DNA of 64,000 bases from Treponemataceae bacterium (GTDB lineage Bacteria; Spirochaetota; Spirochaetia; Treponematales; Rectinemataceae). The stretch spans positions 448,001 to 512,000 of the forward strand of contig CAXXGJ010000018.1 of NCBI GenBank assembly GCA_963677895.2, in the 5' to 3' direction. The notes under the pieces are model-generated. The model was not told the origin of the DNA, did not search any database, and saw only the letters and a program-made list of their open reading frames with translations. Of this stretch, positions 31,821-46,686 are shown one piece after another. Position 1 is the first letter of the stretch. Each line of letters begins with the position of its first letter. Made by a program: the position numbers and the translations under genes.

Positions 31821-31852
31821 AAAAAAGGGCGACGTCCGCAGGACGTCGCCCT
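31821..31852 (-). terminator. Intrinsic terminator of the carboxyltransferase gene
   Basis: AGGGCGACGTCC-GCA-GGACGTCGCCCT with A6 on the plus strand, which is a U tract on the minus strand. Confidence 0.85.
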
Positions 31853-31876
31853 CGTCGAAATTACGTTATGCGATGC

Positions 31877-33676
31877 TTATTCGGCGTTTTCGACGGCGAA
31901 CTGCCAATAATCCGCGCCATGGCCGTCCTCGACGGCATAACCGGCGGGAAGGGAAGACGCTCCGCTCGCGAAAGCGGGAGGGGTGAAGTATTGAATGCCC
32001 GCTGGATCCAGGGCCTCCTGGCTGTCCTTTTCGGCGGAATCGGAGAGCGCGGCTGCTACGGCGGCCGCGACGGCGATCTCTGTCGCCGCTTTATAGCCAT
32101 CTGATTTTTTCCATTCTTCCATTCGCTGGCCCTTGAGGAATTTCTCGGCCACGGAAGGGAAAAGCTCCAGAAGCAATTTTTCCTTCTCGTCGATCGCCAG
32201 GAGGCTACCGCCCGCATCCTCCTGGATTGGATTGGGCTGTTCCTTATAATTCGAAGTGTCGTAGGGGATCTCTTCCTTCGTGCCGCAGATCTTGAAGCGG
32301 AATTCCGGGTCGACCGGCCATGGCGTTTTTCCGTAGGACCCTTTCACCAGCTCGGCGAAGTTTTTCGACACATTGGCGTAGGGATCTTCGCCCTTAATTT
32401 TTGAAACGACATAATTGACAGCCTGCACACCGACGATCTGGCTCGTGGGCGTCACGAGGGGCGGAACGCCCGCATCGAGCCTTACGATGGGTACTACCTT
32501 CAACACCTCATTGAGGTGCTGTTCCAGTTTGGCTTCTTTCAGCTGGGCCATCATGTTGGTATACATGCCGCCAGGGATCTGCGCGGTCTGGACGATGGCA
32601 TCAGGTTCGGGATAGTTGAAGGCGGCTTCGATCTGCCTGCATCGCTCGAGAGCCTTCGTGAATTTGCCGCCGACCGTGAACTCCAGCGCGTCGTCGAAGA
32701 GGCTGTTGAGTTCGGGCGGGAGCCTGTCCTTGGATAGGTCCATCGCGGGAGGCAGCCTCTTGTACTGATCGAATTTGGAGAGTTCGGCCCTTATGTCGCG
32801 GAGCGCCGCGTCGATTTTGGCCACGGCGGCGTTGTCGACGCCGGTTTCCATCCCCAGCTTGTCGGCGAAAATCCTGATGATCTCGTATGCGGGCGCCGCG
32901 GGTCCGCCGGAGAAAGAGAGCATGGCCGTATCGACGATGTCGACGCCGTTCACCATGGCGGAGAGAAGGCTTGCCACGCCGTATCCGGGGGTGCAGTGGG
33001 TATGAAGATCGATGGGGACGCTCACCTCGTTTTTCAGGGCTTTTATAAGCCTGGCCGACTTCACCGGATCGATGAGTCCGGCCATGTCCTTGATGGTGAT
33101 CATGTCGGCGCCGACGGCTTCGAGCGTCTTGGCTTTTTTCACGAAATAGTCAATGTTGAAAATGTCGTTGGGCAGGTGCTTGCCTGATATGAAGGACCTG
33201 AATCTTTCCGTCCCCGAGAACTTCGGATCCACGGTGTAGCAGACGGCGCAATCGGCCATTCCGCCGGCTTCCTTGACGAAGTTTATGGATGATTTCATGT
33301 TTTCGATATCGTTGAGGGCGTCGAAAATACGCATGATGTCGATGCCCGAAGCGACCGCGTTCCTGCAGAAGCCGCCGATGACCGAATCGGGGTAGGGATT
33401 ATAGCCGAAAAGGTTTCTTCCCCTGGAGAGGGCGGTAAGCTTGGAGGCTCCGCCGATCCCTGCCTTGATGGACTCCAGCCGCTGCCAGGGGCTTTCATTG
33501 AGGTAGCGCATCACCGAATCGGGTACCGCTCCTCCCCATACTTCCATGGCGAAGAAATGCGCGTCGCGGTAGTCCGGGAGGACTCTGTCCACCTGGGCCT
33601 GGTTCATCCTCGTAGCGAACTGGGATTGCTGACCATCGCGCAGTGTCAGATCCCTTATCTTGAGCTGTTTCTTCAT
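31877..33676 (-). CDS. Pyruvate/oxaloacetate carboxyltransferase (OadA / PycB / transcarboxylase 5S-like) without a biotinyl domain
   Basis: LRDGQQS..ATRM, EVWGGA, RIFDALN, IKDMAG, LHTHCT, QIPGGM and PLVTPTSQIVG; no AMKM motif. Confidence 0.9.
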   Translation of the reverse strand: MKKQLKIRDLTLRDGQQSQFATRMNQAQVDRVLPDYRDAHFFAMEVWGGAVPDSVMRYLNESPWQRLESIKAGIGGASKLTALSRGRNLFGYNPYPDSVIGGFCRNAVASGIDIMRIFDALNDIENMKSSINFVKEAGGMADCAVCYTVDPKFSGTERFRSFISGKHLPNDIFNIDYFVKKAKTLEAVGADMITIKDMAGLIDPVKSARLIKALKNEVSVPIDLHTHCTPGYGVASLLSAMVNGVDIVDTAMLSFSGGPAAPAYEIIRIFADKLGMETGVDNAAVAKIDAALRDIRAELSKFDQYKRLPPAMDLSKDRLPPELNSLFDDALEFTVGGKFTKALERCRQIEAAFNYPEPDAIVQTAQIPGGMYTNMMAQLKEAKLEQHLNEVLKVVPIVRLDAGVPPLVTPTSQIVGVQAVNYVVSKIKGEDPYANVSKNFAELVKGSYGKTPWPVDPEFRFKICGTKEEIPYDTSNYKEQPNPIQEDAGGSLLAIDEKEKLLLELFPSVAEKFLKGQRMEEWKKSDGYKAATEIAVAAAVAAALSDSAEKDSQEALDPAGIQYFTPPAFASGASSLPAGYAVEDGHGADYWQFAVENAE

Positions 33677-33776: not shown

Positions 33777-33805
33777 TTGACAGAATCCCTTTATTCGGCT
33801 ATAAT
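33777..33805 (+). promoter_or_regulatory. Consensus sigma70 promoter of the kor-mcm operon
   Basis: TTGACA-N17-TATAAT. Confidence 0.8.
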
Positions 33806-33939: not shown

Positions 33940-34215
33940 ATGGCTGAACAAAAAAAAGGCTATTATCATGTGATCCGCGAGAAGTACTGCAAAGGCTGCG
34001 GCATATGTGTCGCATTCTGCCCCAAACATCTTCTCGTGCTGAAAAACGGCAAGGTTTTCCCCGAGAAACCTGAAATCTGCATCGGGTGCCGCATGTGCGA
34101 ATTCAGGTGCCCGGACTATGCGATCGAGGTAAAGCCGCTCGAAAAAGAGCCCAACCACGGACACAACGTGGATGCCTACGATCTCAGTCTGCCGCCGGAG
34201 GCGCACAATGGCTAA
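33940..34215 (+). CDS. korD: 2x[4Fe-4S] ferredoxin, 2-oxoacid:ferredoxin oxidoreductase delta subunit
   Basis: CKGCGICVAFCP and CIGCRMCEFRCP. Confidence 0.85.
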   Translation: MAEQKKGYYHVIREKYCKGCGICVAFCPKHLLVLKNGKVFPEKPEICIGCRMCEFRCPDYAIEVKPLEKEPNHGHNVDAYDLSLPPEAHNG

Positions 34216-35341
34216 TATCGTCAAACTCATGCAGGGAAATGAAGCGTGCACTATGGGCGCGCTCGCCGCCGGACTCCAGTTCTTCGGCGGCTACCCGATT
34301 ACCCCTTCCACCGAGATAGCCGAGATGTGCTCCGAGGAGCTGCCCAAGGTCGGCGGTAAATTCATTCAGATGGAAGACGAGATCGGCTCCATCGCCGCGT
34401 GCATCGGCGCTTCCCTCACCGGGAAGAAGGCCATGACCGCCACGTCGGGTCCCGGATTCTCCTTGATGCAGGAAAACATCGGCTATGCCTGTCTCTGCGA
34501 AATTCCCGTCGTCATCATCAATGTTCAGCGAATGGGCCCTTCCACGGGCATGCCTACCAGCCCCGCCCAGGGCGATGTAATGCAGGCGCGCTGGGGCACC
34601 CATGGCGATCATTCCATCATCGTCCTCACTCCGGGTAACGTGAAGGAATGTTTCGAACTCACCTTCAAGGCCTTCGTCCTCTCGGAAAAATACAGGATTC
34701 CCGTCATCGTCCTGGCCGACGAGGTCATCTGCCATATGAGGGAAAAGGTGGTTCTGCCCGATCCCAAAACCTACAAGATTCCCATGCGCGCCATGCCGGA
34801 ATCCCCGGCCGGGTACAAGCCATACGCGGCCGATCCCGATGGCGGCGTGCCTCTCATGGCGCCCTTCGGCAAGGGTTACCGCTGGCACTGCACTGGTCTG
34901 TTCCACGACGAAACGGGAGCCCCATCGGGCAAGCCCGCCGTCGCCAACACTCTTTTGCGGCGGCTCGATCGAAAAATCGAGAAGAACAAGGCCGAATTCG
35001 AGGATTATTTCGCCGAAAACCTGGATGACTGCGACGTCGCTGTCGTTTCCTTCGGTTCCTCGGCCATGGCCGCCCTGTCGGCGGTGAGGCGGGCGCGCGC
35101 GGAAGGCTTGAAGGCCGGCATGCTCAGGCTCAAGACCATGTGGCCTTTCCCCGACGAAACCGTGCGAAGATTGACTTCCAGCGCGAAAACGATAATCGTT
35201 CCCGAGATGAATCTTGGCCAGGTCGCCCTCGAAGTGGAGCGCGTGATCCACGGCAAGGCGGATGTCGTAAAGCTCGGGAAGGTGAACGGCGAACTTTTCC
35301 ACCCCGACGAAGTGTACGCGGCCCTCAAGGAGGCCTTCTGA
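34208..35341 (+). CDS. korA: 2-oxoacid:ferredoxin oxidoreductase alpha subunit
   Basis: GNEA, GYPITPSTE, QMEDE, TATSGPGFSLMQE and QRMGPSTG; ATG 34208. Confidence 0.9.
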   Translation: MANIVKLMQGNEACTMGALAAGLQFFGGYPITPSTEIAEMCSEELPKVGGKFIQMEDEIGSIAACIGASLTGKKAMTATSGPGFSLMQENIGYACLCEIPVVIINVQRMGPSTGMPTSPAQGDVMQARWGTHGDHSIIVLTPGNVKECFELTFKAFVLSEKYRIPVIVLADEVICHMREKVVLPDPKTYKIPMRAMPESPAGYKPYAADPDGGVPLMAPFGKGYRWHCTGLFHDETGAPSGKPAVANTLLRRLDRKIEKNKAEFEDYFAENLDDCDVAVVSFGSSAMAALSAVRRARAEGLKAGMLRLKTMWPFPDETVRRLTSSAKTIIVPEMNLGQVALEVERVIHGKADVVKLGKVNGELFHPDEVYAALKEAF

Positions 35342-36201
35342 TGGCTGAACTACTCGACTATTTCCGCAAGGAAAGGCTTCCCCATATCTGGTGCCCCGGC
35401 TGCGGCCATGGAACGATCACGGGAGCCCTTGTCCGGGCCATCGACAAGCTTGGACTCGATAAGAACAACATCGTCCTCGTCTCCGGCATCGGCTGCTCGA
35501 GCCGCGCCGTCGGTTACCTCGATTTCGACACGGTGCATACGACACACGGACGGGCGCTCGCCTTCGCGACGGGCATCAAGCACGCGAGGCCCAATCTCAA
35601 GGTGATTGTCATGACCGGCGACGGAGACTGCACGGCCATTGGCGGCAACCATTTCATCCACGCCGCCCGCCGCAACATCGACATCACGACGATCATCATG
35701 AACAACAATATCTACGGCATGACTTCGGGGCAGTATTCCCCGACAACGCCGCATGACATGATGGCAACGACCGCCCCCTATGGCAACGTCGACTATCCGT
35801 TCGACGTCTGCGAACTCGCGAAGGCCGCCGGCGCGACCTATGTGGCGAGGGCGACGTCCTACCATGTTACCCTCCTCACCGAGCTTATCGAAAAAGCTCT
35901 ACAGCACAAAGGCTTCTCTGTAGTGGAAGCTTTCGGCCAATGCCCCACGTATTTCGGCAGAAAAAATAAGCTGGGCGGGGCGGTGGAACTGATGAACTGG
36001 ATCAAGGACGGCACGGTCAATGTAAAGGCCGCCGCCGCGCTTCCTCCGGAAAAGCTAGAGGGCAAATTCCTCATCGGCGAACTTTTCACGCACGACAGGC
36101 CCGAGTATACGGCCAGCTACGCAGAAATGACGGCGAAAGTCCAGAGAACATACAACGATTACAAGGGAGGTAACCGGGGATGCGAGTTGAATTCAGACTA
36201 A
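35341..36201 (+). CDS. korB: 2-oxoacid:ferredoxin oxidoreductase beta subunit (TPP-binding)
   Basis: WCPGCG, SGIGCS, HGRA, GDGD..IGGNH and YGMTSGQ; ATG 35341 overlaps the korA stop. Confidence 0.9.
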   Translation: MAELLDYFRKERLPHIWCPGCGHGTITGALVRAIDKLGLDKNNIVLVSGIGCSSRAVGYLDFDTVHTTHGRALAFATGIKHARPNLKVIVMTGDGDCTAIGGNHFIHAARRNIDITTIIMNNNIYGMTSGQYSPTTPHDMMATTAPYGNVDYPFDVCELAKAAGATYVARATSYHVTLLTELIEKALQHKGFSVVEAFGQCPTYFGRKNKLGGAVELMNWIKDGTVNVKAAAALPPEKLEGKFLIGELFTHDRPEYTASYAEMTAKVQRTYNDYKGGNRGCELNSD

Positions 36202-36731
36202 GCGGCTCCGGTGGCCAGGGCCTTTTGCTCGCGGGCATCACGCTCGCCGAAGCGGCCATCGATGAGGGCAAGAACGCGGTACAGACACAGAGTTACGGAC
36301 CTGAGGCGAGAGGCGGCTCAAGCAAGGCGGAAGTCGTGATCTCCGACGAGGAAATCGATTACCCGAAGGCGACCGATCCCGATTTCCTTCTCGCGCTCAC
36401 CACGGATGCGTATAAAACCTATGGACCCCTGATGAAGAAGGGACTGATCATCACCGATACGTCGGTGACGCTCGATCCGGCCATCGTGGCGAGAACTGTC
36501 GCCCTGCCGATTCTGGCTTCGGCCGTGGAGAAGGTGGGCAAGAAAGTCGTCGCCAATATGGTGGCCCTGGGTGTCCTCGGCGGCATTTCCGGCGTCGCGA
36601 GCCGCGAAGTGCTGCGAAAAGCGGTCAAAGCCAGGGTTCCGAAGGGAACCGACGAGCTGAACCTTAAGGCGCTCGATGTGGGCCTCGAGCTGGCGGCCGA
36701 GTCCGGAGCTTCCGGTTCGAAGACCAAGTAA
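36180..36731 (+). CDS. korC: 2-oxoacid:ferredoxin oxidoreductase gamma subunit
   Basis: SGSGGQG, QSYGPEARGG and NMVALG. Confidence 0.9.
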   Translation: MRVEFRLSGSGGQGLLLAGITLAEAAIDEGKNAVQTQSYGPEARGGSSKAEVVISDEEIDYPKATDPDFLLALTTDAYKTYGPLMKKGLIITDTSVTLDPAIVARTVALPILASAVEKVGKKVVANMVALGVLGGISGVASREVLRKAVKARVPKGTDELNLKALDVGLELAAESGASGSKTK

Positions 36732-36743
36732 GGAGAATCAACA

Positions 36744-38411
36744 ATGAGCGAAAGCGAAAAGCTCGAGAAAGCGCTCCAGGACTGGAACGCCAAAGTCGAG
36801 AAGTCCATCGCCAAATATCCTGAAAGGAAGGCCGCATTCGTCACAGGCTCCAATAGTCCCGTCAAGCGTATCTATACGCCGATCGATGCCGGGAACAAGG
36901 ATAAACTTGAGACGGTGGGCCTGCCTGGAGAGTTTCCCTATACCAGAGGCGTCCAGTCGACCATGTATCGCGGACGTCTTTGGACCATGAGGCAGTACGC
37001 GGGTTTCGGCAACGCCGAAGAATCCAACGCCCGCTACAAGTTCCTCCTGGCCCAGGGGCAGACGGGTCTGTCCATCGCCTTCGACCTTCCCACCCAGATC
37101 GGCTACGATTCGGATCATCCGCTCGCCGCCGGCGAGGTGGGCAAGGTGGGCGTGGCGATCGACTCCCTGGAGGACATGGAAACCCTTTTCGGCGGCATTC
37201 CGCTGGACAAGGTTTCCACGAGCATGACCATCAACGCTCCCGCTTCGGTTCTCCTCGCGATGTACATCGCGGTGGCCGAAAAGCAGGGCGTGTCGGCCGA
37301 CAAGCTCGACGGCACGATCCAGAACGACATCCTCAAGGAATACGTCGCCCGCGGCACCTATATCTTTCCGCCGACGCCTTCCATGAGGCTCATCACCGAC
37401 ATTTTTTCTTATTGTTCGAAAGAGGTGCCCAGCTGGAATACGATTTCCATCTCCGGCTACCATATCCGCGAGGCGGGCGCCACGGCCGTCCAGGAAGTGG
37501 CCTTCACCCTGGCCGACGGCATCGCCTATGTCGACGCGGCCATCAAGGCCGGCCTCGACGTGGACGAGTTCGCGCCTCGCCTTTCTTTCTTCTTCAACGC
37601 GCACAACGATCTTTTCGAGGAAGCGGCCAAGTTCCGCGCGGCTCGCCGCGTCTGGGCCCATATCATGAAAGAACGTTTCGGCGCCAAGAACCCCAAGAGC
37701 CTCATGCTGCGCTTCCATACGCAGACGGCGGGCTCGACGCTCACGGCGCAGCAGCCCGAGAACAATGTCGTGCGCGTCACGATCCAGGCGCTCGCGGCCG
37801 TGCTCGGCGGAACCCAGTCCCTGCACACGAATTCCAGGGATGAGGCCCTCGCCCTGCCGACCGAAGCTTCCGTGCGCATCGCGCTCCGGACCCAGCAGAT
37901 TCTCGCTTACGAGTCAGGTGTCGCCGAGACGCCCGACCCGCTGGCCGGTTCCTACTACGTGGAAACCCTCACCGACTCCATCGAGGAGGGCGTCCTCGCC
38001 TACATCAAGCGCATCGACGATCTGGGCGGTGCGGTAAAGGCCATCGAACAGGGCTACATCCAGCAGGAAATCCAGGATTCGGCCTATGCCTGGCAGATGG
38101 ATGTCGAAAAGAATGAACGCGTGGTGGTCGGGCTCAACAAGTTCCAGGTGAAGGAGGGCCCGCCCAAGGGACTCCTGCGCGTGGATCCCGCCGTCGGCGA
38201 AAATCAGGTCGCGAAGCTGCGGGCCCTCAGGGCGCGCCGCGACAACGCGGCCGTCACGGCGGCGCTGGAAGCCCTGAAAGTCGCCGCCATGGGCTCGGAC
38301 AATCTCATGCCTTACATCCTTACCGCGGTCAAGACCTACGCGACATTGGGCGAGGTCTGCGATGTGCTGAGGGGCGTCTTCGGCGAATATCGCCCCAGCG
38401 TCATGTTCTAA
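36744..38411 (+). CDS. Methylmalonyl-CoA mutase, substrate-binding subunit
   Basis: [40 protein letters not shown] and LHTNSRDEA. Confidence 0.93.
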
Positions 38412-38427
38412 TCGAGGGAGTCACAGC

Positions 38428-38826
38428 ATGGAACGTAAAATACGCGTTATCGTCGCGAAACCCGGCCTCGACGGCCATGACAGGGGCGCCAAGGTCATAG
38501 CCCGAGCCCTGCGCGACGCGGGCATGGAAGTAATCTATACAGGACTGCGCCAGACTCCCGAACAGATCGTCCAGGCGGCCATTCAGGAAGATGCCGACGT
38601 GATCGCCCTTTCCATTCTTTCGGGGGCGCACAACCATCTCTTTCCCCGCGTCGTGGACCTTCTCAAGGAAAAGGGCGCCGATGACATTCTCGTGTTCGGA
38701 GGCGGTGTCATACCCGAGGAGGATATTCCTTTCCTCAAATCCAAGGGCATCGCGGAAGTCTTCGGACCGGGCACGCCCACTTCGGTGACCGTGGATTTCA
38801 TCAAGACACATCTAAAAAGAGAGTAG
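38428..38826 (+). CDS. Methylmalonyl-CoA mutase cobalamin-binding subunit
   Basis: [10 protein letters not shown] (DxHxxG), SILSGAH, GGGVIP and FGPGT. Confidence 0.93.
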
Positions 38827-38835
38827 CGTTCATAC

Positions 38836-39905
38836 ATGATTGATACCCTCGCGCGCCGCTGCCTCGATGGCGACCTGCGTGCCGTGGCGAGGCTGATCAG
38901 CCTGCTCGAGGACGGCGACAAGGATGCTTTCGGCACCCTCGCCGCCCTCAAACAGCGCTCTGGCCAAGCCCATGTCATAGGCATCACTGGTCCCCCCGGC
39001 TCGGGCAAAAGCACATTGACGGACAAGCTCATCGGCGAATTCCGCGCGAGCGGGAAGAAGGTGGGCGTCATCGCCGTCGATCCGTCGAGTCCCTTCTCCG
39101 GCGGCGCCATCCTGGGCGACCGCCTTCGCATGCAGGGGCACGCGACCGATCCCGGCGTTTTCATACGCAGTCTCGCCTCGCGGGGCCGCCTCGGCGGGCT
39201 CTCGAAGGCGACGGCCTTCGCCGTGCGCGCCCTGGAAGCCGCCGGCTACGATATCGTGATCATCGAAACGGTAGGAGTAGGCCAGTCGGAAATCGATATA
39301 GTCAAGGTGGCCGATACGGTGGTTCTCATCTCCGTTCCAGGCTTGGGTGACGACATACAGGTCATCAAGGCGGGAATCATGGAGATTGGCGACATCTTCG
39401 TCGTGAACAAATCGGACAGGGATGGAGCCGACAGGGTGGTGAGGGAAATACGCGCCATGCTAGAAACCCAGGCGATGCTCAAGCGGGGAAGAAGCGTGGA
39501 AGCGGGGCCCGACACTCTCTCCGCGAGAAATATGGAAATACTGCATCATGGCCAGAATGACCTCCGTCCCGAAACCATGCCCGAGAGGGCGGATCCCTTC
39601 GCCCTGCCTCCCGTGATGAAGACGATAGCCGAAACGGGGGAGGGCGTGCCCGAACTCTGCCGGAAAATCCTTTCGCGTTTCGAAGACGGCGAAGGCTTCG
39701 GGCGAACTCGAGACGAGACGTCGGGCTTCCATAAAATCCCAGCTCAAGGATCTGGTCGGATGGCAGGTCATGGACTATTTCGTCGATCACGAGGAAAACG
39801 GCCAGCCTGGAAAACCTGGCGCGCGCCGTCCTGAAAAGGGAGATCGACGTCTATACCGCGGCGCGGGAACTTTTTTCAGCGCTCATCAAAGGAGAAAGAC
39901 AATGA
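38836..39905 (+). CDS. meaB: MeaB/ArgK GTPase chaperone of the mutase, with two apparent 1-nt insertions (~39684, ~39802)
   Basis: GITGPPGSGKST, AVDPSS..GGAILGDRLRM, ETVGVGQSE and VNKSD. The expected C-terminus (..GELETRRR.., ..REIDVYTAAREL..) lies in the two other frames and ends at TGA 39905. Confidence 0.85.
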
Positions 39906-40306
39906 AACTCGAAAGACTGGATCATATCGGCATCGCCGTGGAAAAGATCGACGAAGCGCTGCCCATCTGGGAAGGATTTCTCGGTCTTCCCCTCCATGGA
40001 ACGGAGGAAGTGAAGGAGCAGAAAGTCCGCACCGCCTTTTTGCCCATAGGCGAATCGGAGGTCGAGCTCCTGGAGTCCACGGATCCTGAAGGGGCGATAG
40101 CGAAGTTCATCGCCGCGAAGGGCCAAGGCATCCAGCATGTCGCTTTCAGAGTGGAGGACATCGATGCGGCGCTCGCGGAACTCAAGGAAAAAGGCGTTCG
40201 CCTGATCGATCAGACGCCGCGCGCCGGCGCTGGCGGAGCGAGGATAGCCTTCCTCCATCCCAAGGCCACCGGCGGCGTCCTGATCGAACTCTGCGAAAGG
40301 AAGTAG
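39902..40306 (+). CDS. mce: Methylmalonyl-CoA epimerase
   Basis: LDHIGIAV, ELLE, GIQHVAF, FLHPK and VLIEL (VOC fold); ATG 39902 behind AAGGAG. Confidence 0.93.
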   Translation: MKLERLDHIGIAVEKIDEALPIWEGFLGLPLHGTEEVKEQKVRTAFLPIGESEVELLESTDPEGAIAKFIAAKGQGIQHVAFRVEDIDAALAELKEKGVRLIDQTPRAGAGGARIAFLHPKATGGVLIELCERK

Positions 40307-40389: not shown

Positions 40390-40538
40390 AATGTATATTA
40401 ACAATTTTTAAGGTATAGATATTTTTTTAGTCAGGGACTATAATATTTCTCGGTACTTTATCAATCATTAGCTTTCCGGGACTGTTTCGTATGGATTCGC
40501 AACAGCCCGGCGGGCGGATGCAAGGATGGTCGGCGCAT

Positions 40539-42083
40539 ATGGATGAAAAGCTTAAAGAGCTTGAAGAGCGGCGCGCCAAGGTGCTTGCGGGCGGTGGCCC
40601 CAAGCGCATTGCGGCCCAGCACGCGAAAGGCAAGAAGACGGCGCGAGAAAGGATTGAGGCTCTTCTTGACCAGGGATCCTTTGTCGAACTGGATGCCTTT
40701 GTCGAGCATCGCTGCACTGATTTGGGGATGAACGAAGTTCAGGCTCCCGGAGAGGGTGTGGTGATCGGTTACGGAACCATCAATGGCAGAACCGTCTATG
40801 TATTCGCCCAGGATTTTACCGTCATCGGTGGATCCCTTGGCGAGATGCACGCGGCGAAGATCTGCAAAGCCATGGATATGGCGGTAAAAGTCGGTTGCCC
40901 CTGCATTGGGATCAACGATTCCGGCGGAGCGAGAATCCAGGAAGGCGTGGACGCCCTATCCGGATACGGCGACATTTTCTACCGCAACACATTAGCTTCT
41001 GGTGTAGTGCCGCAGATTTCCGTGATAATGGGACCCTGCGCGGGCGGCGCCGTCTATTCCCCAGCGCTCACGGACTTTGTCTTTATGACCGAGGGCTCCT
41101 CGAACATGTTCATCACCGGTCCCCAGGTCATTAAGGCCGTTACCGGCGAAGACGTCTCCGCGGAAGATCTCGGCGGCGCTCGTGTCCATACCGAAATCTC
41201 GGGCGTATCCCAGTTCCGCTTCAAGGACGAGGATGCGACCATCGAAGGCATCAGGAAACTCCTCTCCTTCCTGCCCCAGAACAACATCGAGGACGCGCCT
41301 CTCGTAAAGAATGGCGACGAACCTTTCAGGGCAGATCCCGAACTCGCCAATATCATGCCCGATTCGCCCAATAAACCCTACGATGTCCGCAGCGTCATCG
41401 AGCGCGTTGTCGACCTGGGCGATTATCTTGAGGTTCAGCCCGATTATGCCAGGAATATCGTCACCTGCTTTGCCCGCCTGGGCGGTAGATCGGTAGGCAT
41501 CATCGCCAATCAGCCCGCCGTCATGGCAGGCGTTCTCGATATCAACGCTTCGGATAAAGCCTCTCGCTTCATCCGTTTCTGCGACTCCTTCAACATTCCC
41601 CTCGTGACCTTCACCGACACCGCGGGATACCTCCCCGGCGTGGGACAGGAACACGGCGGCGTCATCAGGCACGGAGCCAAGCTCCTCTACGCTTATTCGG
41701 AAGCCACCGTCCCGAAGCTGACCGTCATCCTGAGGAAGGCTTACGGCGGCGCCTATATAGCCATGTGCTCCCGCCACCTCGGGGCCGATCAGGTTCTAGC
41801 TTGGCCGACGGCGGAAATCGCGGTCATGGGTCCGGACGGAGCGGCCAACATCATCTTCAAGAAAGAGATCGATGAGGCGGCCGATCCCGCCGCGGCCAGG
41901 AAGGAAAAAATCGCCGAGTACAAGACAAGCTTCGCCAACCCTTATAAGGCGGCGGTGAGAGGCTATGTCGACGACGTGATCGATCCGGCCCAGACCAGGG
42001 CCCGGCTCTGCTCGGCGCTGACCATGTTGCTCGGCAAACGGCAGACGCTCCCCGCGCGCAAGCACGGGAACATGCCCGTCTGA
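40539..42083 (+). CDS. mmdA: Methylmalonyl-CoA decarboxylase alpha subunit (acyl-CoA carboxyltransferase)
   Basis: KTARERI..LLD, QDFTVIGGS, DSGGARIQEG, GPCAGGAVY, RKAYGGAY and KHGNMP; start set at ATG 40539. Confidence 0.9.
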   Translation: MDEKLKELEERRAKVLAGGGPKRIAAQHAKGKKTARERIEALLDQGSFVELDAFVEHRCTDLGMNEVQAPGEGVVIGYGTINGRTVYVFAQDFTVIGGSLGEMHAAKICKAMDMAVKVGCPCIGINDSGGARIQEGVDALSGYGDIFYRNTLASGVVPQISVIMGPCAGGAVYSPALTDFVFMTEGSSNMFITGPQVIKAVTGEDVSAEDLGGARVHTEISGVSQFRFKDEDATIEGIRKLLSFLPQNNIEDAPLVKNGDEPFRADPELANIMPDSPNKPYDVRSVIERVVDLGDYLEVQPDYARNIVTCFARLGGRSVGIIANQPAVMAGVLDINASDKASRFIRFCDSFNIPLVTFTDTAGYLPGVGQEHGGVIRHGAKLLYAYSEATVPKLTVILRKAYGGAYIAMCSRHLGADQVLAWPTAEIAVMGPDGAANIIFKKEIDEAADPAAARKEKIAEYKTSFANPYKAAVRGYVDDVIDPAQTRARLCSALTMLLGKRQTLPARKHGNMPV

Positions 42084-42097
42084 CCGGGGGAGGCAGC

Positions 42098-42457
42098 ATG
42101 TACAATCAATGGATGATAATGTTCGCTGGCGTAGCCACTGTATTCGTGGCACTTGTCGTCATTATCGCAATGCTCGAAGTATTCCATATTGTTTTCGGAA
42201 AACGTCTCGAAAAAAAGCGGCCGGATTTGGCGCCTCTTCCCGAAATCCACAGTCATGCCGCGCCGCCGGCGCACAGCCCTGCCCAAACATCGCAGCCCGG
42301 CGGTGAACTCGTGGCCGTTATAACCGCTGCCATCTCTGCAGCTACAGGCAAGGCTCCAACGGCTTTTCTTATCAACTCAATCAGCGCTTCATCCGAAGCG
42401 GGAAGCGGTTTCAATACCCCGATATGGGGCCAGATCGAGCGACTCGCTCGCAAATGA
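42098..42457 (+). CDS. mmdD: Na+-translocating decarboxylase delta subunit (OadG/MmdD-like)
   Basis: N-terminal TM (G..TVF..L), Pro/Ala linker, [10 protein letters not shown] helix and C-terminal W. Confidence 0.8.
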
Positions 42458-42476: not shown

Positions 42477-42887
42477 ATGAAACAGTATAAAGTAACCGTG
42501 AATGGCCAGAACTATGATGTGATCGTCGAGGAAGTCGGCGTTGCCGGAATTTCCGCCCCAAGAGCCGCCGCTCCGGCAGCCCCAGTCGCCCCTGCCCCAG
42601 TAGCGGCAGCTGCACCCGCCGCCGCCCCCGCCGCGGCACCTGCCGCCACCTCGACTTACGTCCCATCCGCGGGAGCCATCACCGTCAAATCGCCGATGCC
42701 GGGCACCGTCCTGTCTTTCAAGGTAATCGAAGGCCAAGAAGTGAAGCGCGGCGACGTGCTCCTTATCCTCGAAGCCATGAAAATGGAAAACGAGATCGTT
42801 GCTCCCCAGGCGGGTAAAGTCGCCGCACTTAGGGTTCCCGTCAGCGCTTCTGTCAATACCGGCGATCCACTCGTCGATCTCACCTAA
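42477..42887 (+). CDS. mmdC: Biotin carboxyl carrier subunit
   Basis: YKVTVNG..YDV N-terminus, Ala/Pro linker and EAMKM. Confidence 0.9.
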
Positions 42888-42902: not shown

Positions 42903-44033
42903 ATGCTTGAATTTTTGACAGAGTTCGTTCAGTCGACCGGATTCGCCAATCTAGACCTCGGTCAGCTTCTTATGCTGATTGTCAGCTGTATTCTCCTCTA
43001 CCTTGGGATCTACAGGAAATATGAACCACTGCTTCTGGTTCCCATCGCTTTCGGCATGCTTCTCGCCAACCTTCCTCTCTCAGGCATCACCGACGGCCCG
43101 ATAGGAAACCAGCCCGGCGGCCTCATCTATTATCTCTACCAGGGCGTAAAGTTAGGCATATATCCGCCTCTCATCTTCCTGGGCATCGGAGCGATGACCG
43201 ATTTTGGCCCTCTCATTGCGAATCCTTCCAGCCTTCTCCTGGGAGCGGCCGCCCAGATCGGCATTTTCATCCCCTTCATTCTTGCAACCTACCTGGGTTT
43301 CGATCTTAAGGCCGCGGCGAGTATTGGCATCATTGGCGGAGCGGACGGCCCGACAGCTATCTACCTGACATCCCGCCTCAAGCCGGAAATGCTGGGGCCT
43401 ATAGCGATCGCCGCTTACTCCTACATGGCTCTTGTTCCCCTCATTCAGCCGCCCATAATGAGAGCGCTCACCACTCCCAAGGAAAGAGCGGTCAAGATGG
43501 CCCAGCTACGCGAGGTTACAAAGACCGAAAAAATCGTGTTTCCCATTGCGGTGACGCTTTTCGTCGGCCTACTTCTTCCCTCCGCCGTCCCTCTTGTCGG
43601 CGCCTTGATGCTTGGAAACCTTTTCAAGGAGACCGGCTCGACCGGCAGGCTTTCCGAAACCGCCCAACATGAGCTGATCAACATCCTTACGATTTTCCTC
43701 GGCGTCGCGGTCGGCTCCACGGCAACCGCAGAACGCTTCCTGAATCCCGAAACATTGAAGATCATCGTTCTCGGACTCTTCGCCTTCTCCTGCGGTACGG
43801 CAGGCGGCGTCCTTTTCGGGAAATTGATGTATCTGGTAACGGGGGGTAAGGTCAACCCGCTCATCGGCTCGGCGGGTGTATCTGCGGTTCCGATGGCCGC
43901 TCGTGTTTCCCAGGTTGTCGGCGCGGAAACCGATCCGACAAACTTCCTGCTCATGCACGCCATGGGACCCAATGTCTCAGGCGTCATTGGCTCCGCCGTG
44001 GCTGCCGGCGTTTTACTGACGATACTTGGATAA
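42903..44033 (+). CDS. mmdB: Na+-translocating decarboxylase beta subunit
   Basis: [35 protein letters not shown] and AMGPNV. Confidence 0.93.
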
Positions 44034-44079: not shown

Positions 44080-44247
44080 ATGCTGTTTAATCAAAAATTT
44101 TGAATTTTATGTTTCTATCTATAAGATTGAGACCAAAAATTGCCGCCTTTCTCTTTCCCGGCATAGACTGACATGCTATAGTTCTCGAAATTCTGGTATA
44201 TTTATACTTTTTCGATGGGTTTTTCCATCGCAACCTGGAGAATAGTG

Positions 44248-46686
44248 ATGAATGTGCTTAAATTCGGCGGCGCTTCGGTAGGAAGCGTCGAAGCGATCGG
44301 AAACCTGGTCGAGATTGTCAGGGCGGGTAACGAGAAGATCATCGTCGTTTCGGCTTTCGCCGGCGTCACGGACGAGTTGATCCGCGCCGCGAAACGAGCC
44401 GAGAAACGCGCCGATTACCTGCCTGTTCTCGAAACGCTTCGCTCCAGGCACAAAACCGTGGCCGAGCATTTCCTGAGGGACAAAGCGGCTACCGCCGCTC
44501 TCTCCGAGATAGACGCCCATTTTATGGAGTTGAGCGACTTCCTGCGGGGCATAGAACTCCTGAGGGATCTGACGAAGCGCAGCCTCGACCAGATCATGAG
44601 CGTCGGCGAACGCCTCTCCGCCGCCCTGATCGCCCGAATCCTGACGGCGGGGGAGATACCGGCCCGGTACGTCGACGCGCGCGAACTAATCAGGACCGAC
44701 GCCAATTTCGGCTCGGCCCGCTATCTCGAGGGTGAAACCCGCCAGCTTGTCGCGGCGAGGCTGCCCGCAATCGACGCCGCGGCCGTCATACCCGGATTCA
44801 TCGGCTCGACGACGGAAGGTTTCACCACGACGCTGGGGAGGGGAGGCTCCGATTTCACGGCCAGCATCATTGGCTCCTGCCTCGGCGCCGACGAGATAAG
44901 GATATGGTCCGATGTGGACGGCATGCTCACGGCCGATCCCCAGCTGGTGGCCGACGCCTTCCTGATCCATGAAATTTCCTATGAAGAAGCCCTCGAAATG
45001 ACCCATTTCGGGGCGAAGGTAGTGAATCCCCCGGCCCTTCTGCCGGCCATGGAGTCGGGCATCCCCATCAGGATACTCAACGCCTTCAATACTTCGGGCA
45101 AGGGCACGCTGATCGTGAAACAGGCAGGGAAGAGCGACTATCCCGTCCGTGGGCTGGCGTCCATACCCGCGGTCAGCTTGCTCAGCATTCGCGGCATCGG
45201 GATGCCCGGCGTGACCGGCATCGCCGGCCGGATGTTCGGCGCCCTGGCCCGCTCCAGGATAAACGTGATACTCATAACGCAGGCATCGAGCGAGCTCTCG
45301 ATCTGCTGCGCGATAGATCCAGAGGACGCGATCGACGGCCGGCGGGCGCTCAGGGAGGAATTCGCCCTTGAGATAGCCGCCGGATTCATCGGCGAGCCGT
45401 CGATAGAGAGCGAACTGTGCGTCATCGCCGTCGTGGGCGAGCAGATGAAGCAGAGAACGGGCATAGCCGGAAGGGTCTTCTCCGCGCTGGGGAGGAATGG
45501 CGTCAACGTCGTGGCCATCGCCCAGGGCTCTTCCGAGCTCAATATCTCCATCGTGACTTCCGCCCAGAACAGGGCGAAAGCGCTGAACGTCATCCACGAT
45601 TCCTTCTTCCTCGCCGGAATCAGGACGGTCAACCTCTTCATGGTCGGCACCGGCCTGATAGGCGGAACCCTTCTCGCCCAGATCGCCGACCAGAGAGAGC
45701 GGCTCCTCAGGGAACATTCCATTCGGATCAACCTCGTGGGGCTCGCCAATTCCAGGAAGATGATCATCGACCCGAGGGGCATCGACGAGACCGACTGGAA
45801 GAAAAGCCTTTCCGAAGGCAGGGCGGCGGATTTCGGCCGCTACGTGGATGCGATCAAGGCCCTCAACCTGCCCTCGGCCTGCTTCTGCGACTGCACGGCC
45901 AGCGAGCTGCCCCCCGATCACTACAAGGAGCTCTTCGAAGCCTCCATTTCCGTCGTCACGCCCAACAAGCGCGCCAATGCCGGTCCGTTCGAGCGTTACC
46001 ACGCCCTGAAGGAAGCCGCCCGCCAGATGGACGTCGCGTACGGCTATGAGACCACCGTGGGCGCCGGCCTGCCCGTCATCGGCACCCTCCACGACCTCGT
46101 GGCCTGCGGCGACAGCATCGCCAGGATAGAAGCCGTCCTTTCGGGGACCGTCAGTTTTATCTTCAATCAGCTAGGCAGGGGCAAGAGCTTTTCCTCCCTC
46201 GTCCTCGAAGCCAAGGAAAAGGGCTATACCGAGCCCGATCCCCGGGACGACCTGGGCGCCATCGATATCGCGCGAAAGACGCTGATCCTCATACGGGAAG
46301 CGGGATTCCGTCTCGACTACAAGGATATAGCCATACAGCCTCTCCTCCCGGAGAGCCTGACGAAGGCGCCCAGCGTGGAAAAGTTCCTGTCGATGCTGCC
46401 CGAAGCCGACGAAACGATCGACGGGATGGCGAAGGATGCCGCTTCGCGAGGCAAAGTGCTGCGTTACGTAGCTACGATCCAGCCCGATTCAGCCTCGCTT
46501 TCCCTGCGGGAATACGGCCCCGAGAGCCCCTTCTACAACCTGAGCGGCACCGACAATCTCGTCATGTTCACGACGGCCCGCTACTCGGCCAATCCGCTCG
46601 TGGTGCGCGGTCCCGGCGCCGGCGCCGCGGTTACGGCCGGCGGCGTCTTCGCGGACATTCTGAAGACGGCTCAGTCCTATCTGTAA
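44248..46686 (+). CDS. thrA: Bifunctional aspartate kinase / homoserine dehydrogenase I
   Basis: VLKFGG, TTLGRGGSD, two ACT domains, GTGLIG, YETTVGAGLP, GYTEPDPRDD and GPGAG. Confidence 0.95.
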   Translation: MNVLKFGGASVGSVEAIGNLVEIVRAGNEKIIVVSAFAGVTDELIRAAKRAEKRADYLPVLETLRSRHKTVAEHFLRDKAATAALSEIDAHFMELSDFLRGIELLRDLTKRSLDQIMSVGERLSAALIARILTAGEIPARYVDARELIRTDANFGSARYLEGETRQLVAARLPAIDAAAVIPGFIGSTTEGFTTTLGRGGSDFTASIIGSCLGADEIRIWSDVDGMLTADPQLVADAFLIHEISYEEALEMTHFGAKVVNPPALLPAMESGIPIRILNAFNTSGKGTLIVKQAGKSDYPVRGLASIPAVSLLSIRGIGMPGVTGIAGRMFGALARSRINVILITQASSELSICCAIDPEDAIDGRRALREEFALEIAAGFIGEPSIESELCVIAVVGEQMKQRTGIAGRVFSALGRNGVNVVAIAQGSSELNISIVTSAQNRAKALNVIHDSFFLAGIRTVNLFMVGTGLIGGTLLAQIADQRERLLREHSIRINLVGLANSRKMIIDPRGIDETDWKKSLSEGRAADFGRYVDAIKALNLPSACFCDCTASELPPDHYKELFEASISVVTPNKRANAGPFERYHALKEAARQMDVAYGYETTVGAGLPVIGTLHDLVACGDSIARIEAVLSGTVSFIFNQLGRGKSFSSLVLEAKEKGYTEPDPRDDLGAIDIARKTLILIREAGFRLDYKDIAIQPLLPESLTKAPSVEKFLSMLPEADETIDGMAKDAASRGKVLRYVATIQPDSASLSLREYGPESPFYNLSGTDNLVMFTTARYSANPLVVRGPGAGAAVTAGGVFADILKTAQSYL

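Follow-up and report, generated by a model that had tools for sequence, protein, structure and literature searches.

The transcarboxylase (EC 2.1.3.1) of Propionibacterium freudenreichii/shermanii is composed of 5S, 12S, and 1.3S subunits plus a small fourth ORF, and the cited passages of PMC2909200 gave the P. freudenreichii enzyme as a four-gene operon. Other described systems were as follows: (i) the Na+ pump MmdADCB of Veillonella and Propionigenium; (ii) the mmc cluster (mmcH/I/J plus mmcL) of propionate-oxidising syntrophs, in which, according to the cited part of PMC8892533, genes for decarboxylase alpha, epsilon, and gamma subunits stood together with a 5S-type gene and those for mutase and epimerase; (iii) the oxaloacetate decarboxylases OadGAB of Vibrio and Salmonella, in which the gamma tail bound the alpha association domain (excerpt of PMC7274780), and OadH/D/B/A of Enterococcus faecalis, with a biotin-less OadA and a separate carrier (excerpt of PMC6193673); and (iv) a Kor-based methylmalonyl-CoA route from propionyl-CoA to 2-oxoglutarate proposed for Cloacimonadota (excerpt of bioRxiv 10.1101/2025.11.11.687785). 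For a clostridium, a comparable gene set had led to the proposal of a transcarboxylase (excerpt of PMC7764203), pump and transcarboxylase were never found together in a gut-genome survey (as given in the cited passage of PMC9403272), and transcarboxylase was unmentioned in the cited portion of PMC8100219. The literature search, largely outside subscription journals, found nothing on the tail described below or on a spirochaete transcarboxylase.

The locus studied here was found in a 64,000-nucleotide stretch of a Treponemataceae bacterium (that whole stretch being the window) and consisted of a gene for a biotin-less carboxyltransferase (CT), transcribed divergently from the gene run kor (4 genes)–mcmA–mcmB–meaB–mce–mmdA–mmdD–mmdC–mmdB. 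CT, MmdA, and MmdC correspond to the three catalytic parts of the Propionibacterium enzyme, but CT, at 36% identity to the Propionibacterium 5S and below the 5S cut-off, belonged to another clade, the fourth subunit was the membrane-anchored MmdD, the pump gene was often in the locus, and the context was Kor-fed and mostly without fumarate reductase, unlike the Wood-Werkman cycle. The source cluster had all four subunit types of Veillonella/Propionigenium MmdADCB in order; it differed by a co-inherited pyruvate CT and by a beta subunit that was the dispensable part. The mmc clusters, in the part of their description cited above, carried fumarase, succinyl-CoA synthetase, and malate dehydrogenase, whereas clusters of the source type had kor together with a membrane delta and, in many cases, mmdB. 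The Vibrio/Salmonella and E. faecalis decarboxylases shared the CT fold (2nx9, Z 42.1), but CT, compared with canonical OadA, had neither association hairpin nor biotinyl domain and was unlinked to oadB. The Cloacimonadota route, as far as described in the cited excerpt (bioRxiv 10.1101/2025.11.11.687785), was similar in having kor beside epimerase, methylmalonyl-CoA carboxylation coupled to oxaloacetate decarboxylation, and no succinate/malate dehydrogenase; it differed in phylum, and neither a shared carrier nor a biotin-less CT or tail figured in that route description. Similar gene sets are already known (Propionibacterium, syntrophic mmc clusters), and the source locus is a variant of them.

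The carboxyltransferase and its divergent gene cluster

On its domains, fold, and motifs, the 599-aa product of 31877..33676 (minus strand) is a pyruvate/oxaloacetate carboxyltransferase of 5S/OadA/PycB-type fold: the Pfam domains HMGL-like and PYC_OADA both scored over their cut-offs, and the motifs RDGQQ (13), IKDMAG (195), HTHCT (225), and VTPTSQ (408), which we take to be catalytic, were intact. The Pfam scan gave no Biotin_lipoyl domain in CT, so that ORF and domain content confirmed the initial annotation of a CT lacking the biotin domain. The structure model, predicted from a 114-row alignment, had a mean pLDDT of 87; the fold comprised residues 1-521, and its comparison, which covered these residues and thus CT without the tail, gave Z 42.1 for the CT domains of Vibrio OadA (2nx9; rmsd 2.1 over 439 aligned residues), Z 40.3 for Propionibacterium 5S (1rqh; rmsd 2.1 over 438), and Z 40.4 for two-subunit pyruvate carboxylase. 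CT matched 5S in sequence (E 5e-67) and scored 308 bits on PRK12330 (5S model), under the cut-off of 827, so that it could act as a transcarboxylase while standing outside the 5S sequence family; PRK09282 (pyruvate carboxylase subunit B) was the sole NCBIfam model over cut-off (425 vs 402 bits). The C-terminal hairpin of canonical OadA, absent from CT, was present in two of the genomes compared (G039 and G047). A terminator-like hairpin with U-run was located 3′ of the CT stop codon (31825..31853, minus strand; z -3.8), with 0/200 shuffles as stable, though the consensus terminator scan did not list it. A perfect sigma-70 consensus TTGACA-17-TATAAT (33777..33805, plus strand; 12/12 match) faced the kor–mcm–mmd genes; shuffles yielded 1.3 sites at a looser threshold.

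The divergent cluster, all on the plus strand, began with a four-subunit, kor-like 2-oxoacid:ferredoxin oxidoreductase (33940..36731), assigned by domain models; PRK08659 was over cut-off and 2-oxoglutarate-specific models were under theirs, and its substrate is presumptive. Domain models likewise gave the two-subunit methylmalonyl-CoA mutase, MeaB GTPase, and methylmalonyl-CoA epimerase (36744..40306). The C-terminus of MeaB (39600-39834) may be frameshifted, its Pfam match ending at residue 284, and the MeaB orthologue in relative G001 matched in two pieces. MmdA (40491..42083) was a 12S-like acyl-CoA carboxyltransferase (TIGR01117, 902 bits; cut-off, 999). MmdD, the delta subunit (42098..42457; OAD_gamma, 40.6 bits), contained a TVF motif in its membrane helix (42137-42145; motif scan) and, on conservation, a docking helix (42305-42343) and a basic Trp motif (PIWGQ; Trp codon 42425-42427); a PDB sequence search with MmdD gave 0 matches at E<=10. 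MmdC (42477..42887) was a biotin carrier with AMKM, the sole one found in the genome search, and MmdB (42903..44033) was assigned by domain models as the Na+-translocating decarboxylase beta, so that the pump set (alpha, delta with membrane helix, carrier, beta) was complete in the source cluster. We take CT, MmdA, and MmdC to be 5S-, 12S-, and 1.3S-type subunits, and the passages cited at the outset support these labels. An aspartate kinase/homoserine dehydrogenase gene, a consumer of oxaloacetate-derived aspartate, stood directly behind mmdB (44215-46686); the aspartate kinase gene was matched within 12/45 loci screened.

AMKM carrier, MmdA, and CT of the source type each occurred once in the source genome (92.8% complete), which gave no Biotin_carb_C match; a dedicated CT carrier or biotin carboxylase partner, which would have countered the sharing of MmdC, was thus not among the matches in this genome. 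Since the carrier was single, we infer that an active CT must borrow MmdC. The ATP-grasp matches in this genome came without the Biotin_carb_C domain. A second beta (L031:7111-8452, contig C38) was followed by a 63-aa membrane-only peptide, with no carrier nearby. GTP-PEPCK, malic enzymes, and aconitases were encoded; a Wood-Werkman reading was rejected, as no Succ_DH_flav_C, Ldh_1_N, Si-citrate synthase, or PEPCK_ATP match was found in this 92.8% complete genome. An 853-aa ORF (L121:3551-6109, G000:C1) joined succinyl-CoA ligase alpha to a DASS-family symporter, as either a real fusion or an assembly artefact.

The C-terminal tail and its comparison with MmdD

The CT tail was about 75 aa long, lacked a biotin domain, and displayed two parts on the minus strand: (i) an Ala/Val helix EIAVAAAVAAAL (32045..32080; residues 533-544), delimited by conservation and helical in models, and (ii) a distal motif (31880..32008; residues 557-599), delimited by conservation, with an acidic helix and an invariant Trp591 (codon 31904-31906; alignment) inside DYWQFA (residues 589-594). 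Helix and late Trp thus lay where the initial annotation had placed them, and the distal helix spanned residues 588-596 in the predicted model. The homologue search retained the best 120 of 8000 scored candidates, whose source names pointed to Spirochaetota, and exclusion of 2 tandem fusions, 3 truncated, and 2 redundant rows left an alignment of 113 homologues plus the query. Among these 113 homologues in the matches listed, mean identity to the query was 0.77 over residues 1-522, 0.09 over 523-557, 0.29 over 558-599, and 0.049 over the helix 533-544, and Trp591 was identical in 113/113. The helix was changed already in homologues of 96-98% identity (P0002 and P0003), its pattern occurring in 3/116 homologue tails among the matches listed and in 4/38 genome tails, including all three genomes of the source genus. 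The expected conservation of the tail in orthologues therefore held for distal Trp591 and failed for the Ala/Val helix. By sequence, the latter prolongs the final CT helix, an extension limited to the source genus, and lies within a hypervariable linker, whose length varied about threefold. The long tail form, that of the source clade, made up 46/116 and the short form 58/116 of the tails among the matches listed; HHalign matched the two distal forms weakly (35.7%, E 4e-4).

Comparison was also made with the delta subunits, the initial annotation having proposed that the tail mimics MmdD through its helix and Trp, draws MmdA and MmdC into a soluble assembly, and rivals MmdD. The pattern [IVL][AST]AA[VIL].A gave 38 matches per 1.35 million residues of ordinary ORFs and occurred in 32/37 deltas, so a visual likeness of tail and delta was understandable; it was seen in the models as a helical segment and in all three genomes of the source genus. 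The proposed "same layout" stood as this likeness of shared rare pattern and late Trp (PIWGQ in MmdD), and it did not extend beyond chance. On a delta C-terminal profile built from 36 of 37 deltas, true MmdD scored 83 bits and the CT tail 5.8 bits, the best of the 116 tails among the matches listed, yet unrelated six-frame ORFs of the source genome reached 10.9 bits. HHalign of the CT tail against the delta profile gave 0.07%, and a second comparison 0.05-0.16%. None of 22 CT tails matched OAD_gamma or ACC_epsilon at E<=10, the profile search thus turning against the proposal; as positive controls, a 53-aa MmdD fragment without the membrane helix and 3/3 soluble epsilon-like ORFs matched OAD_gamma weakly (15-20 bits). 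The true delta arm (helix, strand, PxWG, Arg) was well conserved. Its strand was absent from the CT tail, as was the PxWG-type motif followed by Arg that was found in 37/37 deltas, and the mean net charge of the Trp motif was -3.3 in CT tails (n=114) vs +1.5 in deltas (n=37). With its helix altered at 96-98% identity, its score within chance, no profile match in any tail–delta comparison, opposite motif charge, and, as shown below, a delta arm kept everywhere, the source tail is very unlikely to be an MmdD mimic of this kind. A loose PxW[GAS] second Trp, recalling the delta motif, was present in 11/116 tails among the matches listed (P0049, P0052, P0054, P0056, P0058-P0060, P0063-P0065, and P0076; best, 1.2 bits on the delta profile).

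Because the CT tail matched neither the delta profile nor OAD_gamma, it is best described, on these comparisons, as a flexible linker followed by a short acidic helix that carries the Trp and is distinct from the MmdD motif. This helix is probably a docking peptide that would bind either CT itself or one of MmdA, MmdC, and the delta arm, and its Trp motif is a plausible, putative tether. The distal-tail pLDDT was about 75 in the full model and 78-87 for the tail alone; being no higher in full CT, the model confidence gave no support to self-docking of the tail on CT. In complex prediction, tail residues 526-599 were combined with MmdA, three segments of the MmdC N-terminus, and the delta arm; both runs scored 0.00, and as the controls did not fold either, this result points neither way. 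In an ESM Atlas search with the CT tail, every match was under 0.9 (best, 0.85; PYC_OADA fragments). A spirochaete–Bacteroidota tail homology suggested by eye was rejected (HHalign 0.03-0.12%). The Trp motif was kept in genomes with both betas, with MmdB only (G049 and G056), with the orphan beta only (G006 and G007), and with none; the tail as a beta-subunit ligand was rejected because of this retention in all four beta configurations.

Distribution and modular variation in relatives and sister clades

The relatives sample comprised 60 genomes: 36 of the source family (f1), 6 of a second family (f6), and 18 others. Source-clade CT, a type without biotin domain, was present in 36/36 f1 and 6/6 f6 genomes and MmdA in 35/36 f1, 6/6 f6, and 1/18 other-family genomes; the 18 other-family genomes carried mostly canonical biotinylated OadA, and the source-type CT occurred in 6/151 genomes of a phylum sample. 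Biotin_carb_C had no match in 34/36 f1 and 6/6 f6 genomes and was over cut-off in 1/43 genomes of the two families. On the gene linkage in relatives that the initial annotation wished to see checked, CT and mmdA were located together, with CT beside kor–mcm–mce–mmdADC, in 28/29 readable genomes (14 genomes with the genes on separate contigs being left out), with G014 unlinked and, in G008, CT directly divergent from mmdA; the 5S-, 12S-, and 1.3S-type subunits were likewise encoded together in 28/29 readable loci. Succ_DH_flav_C was found in 5/36 f1 and 0/6 f6 genomes.

The mmdA-D-C loci displayed modular variation downstream of mmdC: 19 of 37 continued with mmdB, 13 were without it, 3 carried a different beta, and 2 ended at a contig edge. 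With at least 2.7 kb read past mmdC for an mmdB-less call, 35 loci were classifiable and mmdB was absent from 13 of these. The delta docking arm was retained in all 13 mmdB-less loci, so delta would be part of the pump-less complex and not a rival; this speaks against the proposed competition between tail and MmdD, and delta is more likely a scaffold than a competitor. The TVF motif of the delta membrane helix was present in 19/19 mmdB loci, 0/13 mmdB-less loci, and 0/3 others; mmdB-less deltas mostly kept a different hydrophobic anchor, and delta in G011 and G026 kept a hydrophobic N-terminal segment. OAD_beta had no match in G011 (97% complete), G026 (98%), or G030 (89%), three draft genomes from two genera that kept CT, MmdA, MmdC, and the delta arm. 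The other 10 of the 13 mmdB-less genomes had a beta elsewhere, and 8/8 of those inspected had an orphan beta plus a membrane-only gamma-like peptide, so most mmdB-less genomes could still pump in trans. A stand-alone beta gene followed by a membrane-only gamma-like ORF of 48-64 aa was observed in 16/16 relative loci inspected (L137-L152); this ORF had no docking arm, no carrier matched nearby, and no significant Pfam match.

In the MmdA tree (34 rows, G009, G017, and G022 left out; a quick method with unresolved root and non-independent kin), the mmdB-less state required 5 changes, at least 4 of them forced by starred branches, with gain and loss not distinguishable; G003/G023 and G002/G005 were sisters contrasting in mmdB state. 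In G002, an aspartate kinase gene directly followed mmdC, a junction that looks like a clean mmdB deletion. Full-length citrate synthase was found in 8/13 mmdB-less vs 2/19 mmdB-bearing genomes, which is a hint only. In G036, G029, and G010 (L053/L132, L061, and L068), a malonate-decarboxylase-like beta plus canonical OadA replaced mmdB; delta there was soluble, and a tail-bearing CT was still in the genome.

Sister CTs (53-60% identity) exhibited different C-termini: P0123, P0124, and P0128 had a biotin domain where the CT tail stands, and others had a long charged helix with an aromatic end motif, a short helix, or nothing. No complete C-terminus among 49 loci had a biotin motif, and a more distant spirochaete CT (G200) had no tail. 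In an Ignavibacteria sister clade, CT–mmdA–soluble epsilon–carrier formed a run in six loci, two with breaks (L092, L094, L100, L116, L117, and L120), the same gene order as in the P. freudenreichii operon (cited passages of PMC2909200). Four of four Ignavibacteria genomes tested lacked OAD_beta and had biotin carboxylase, so the CT operon there could serve ATP-dependent carboxylation. Tandem CT–CT fusions of about 1115-1190 aa without biotin domain were present in Marinifilum and relatives (L078, L081, L084, L085, L087, and L090; proteins P0004, P0053, and P0122).

A probable shared biotin carrier and rival readings

CT, MmdA, MmdC, and the delta arm were kept in every configuration and the betas were variable, and the module is read on that ground as a transcarboxylase: probably a methylmalonyl-CoA:pyruvate transcarboxylase with a shared carrier, built on the Mmd subunits with MmdD as scaffold and the pump as an optional drain. 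CT would use the stand-alone carrier MmdC, which the cytoplasmic arm of MmdD, by analogy with OadG/MmdD biochemistry, would keep attached to MmdA. One biotin would visit both carboxyltransferases (methylmalonyl-CoA + pyruvate = propionyl-CoA + oxaloacetate) with no ATP and no free CO2, and beta, where present, would be an optional third site that frees CO2 and pumps Na+. Through mutase and epimerase, the module would connect Kor (2-oxoglutarate/succinyl-CoA) with the pyruvate/oxaloacetate node in hosts that appear mostly to lack succinate dehydrogenase/fumarate reductase; the forward direction, from 2-oxoglutarate to propionyl-CoA, would supply oxaloacetate, and the reverse direction is also possible. 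A transcarboxylase independent of ATP, biotin carboxylase, and the Na+ pump is conceivable on these data: no biotin carboxylase was matched, and beta was absent from three genomes but present in the source genome. Of the initial proposal, the shared carrier MmdC and the transcarboxylase are thus favoured by comparative genomics, and the soluble complex competing with MmdD is not.

The two betas of the source genome, the orphan beta plus membrane-only gamma in 16/16 relative loci inspected, the separate biotin acceptor of the four-subunit E. faecalis decarboxylase (excerpt of PMC6193673), and the top structural match to OadA 2nx9, tied with 5S, would all fit CT as a split oxaloacetate decarboxylase alpha that loads MmdC, MmdB or the orphan beta releasing the carboxyl, so that coupling ran via the Na+ gradient and direct transcarboxylation was negligible. 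However, G011, G026, and G030 without any beta are left unexplained by it, and CT travels with mmdA and not with beta; we consider this reading unlikely. PRK09282 as sole NCBIfam model over cut-off (425 vs 402 bits) would suit a two-subunit pyruvate carboxylase in which CT forms subunit B and the biotin carboxylase is missing from an assembly only 92.8% complete; with Biotin_carb_C not over cut-off in 42/43 f1 and f6 genomes, ATP-grasp matches of the source genome without that domain, and CT without a biotinyl domain, this reading is hardly credible.

A further reading concerns the tail alone and is compatible with the shared-carrier transcarboxylase: the Trp motif would only stabilise the CT oligomer or gate the active site, and CT would meet MmdC by diffusion. 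Sister clades with unrelated tails or none, and the joining of two CTs through the same helix in Marinifilum, are consistent with such a role, but the threefold variation of linker length suits a tether and no self-contact was readable in the predicted models, which leaves this role possible though doubtful. Equally tentative is an extension of the shared-carrier transcarboxylase to a modular biotin hub, in which MmdA–MmdC–delta might serve the methylmalonyl-CoA CT, a Trp-tethered pyruvate CT, and interchangeable Na+-pumping betas (MmdB, or free-standing beta plus membrane-only gamma), with carboxyls going partly to ATP-free oxaloacetate synthesis and partly to Na+ pumping; repeated mmdB loss with loss of the beta-type membrane motif of delta might then have given a membrane-anchored transcarboxylase. 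In citrate-synthase-bearing members, such a hub could complete an oxidative cycle that leads from acetyl-CoA + pyruvate to propionyl-CoA and regenerates oxaloacetate.

If the shared-carrier transcarboxylase is real, pump and transcarboxylase, usually counted as alternatives for one step, would be two states of one assembly, and these genomes, with both betas, only one, or none, would form a natural series for testing carboxybiotin sharing. It would also correct the annotation of 'pyruvate carboxylase B' or 'oxaloacetate decarboxylase alpha' in this spirochaete family and in related Bacteroidota/Ignavibacteria, and it would bear on whether these organisms produce or consume propionate.
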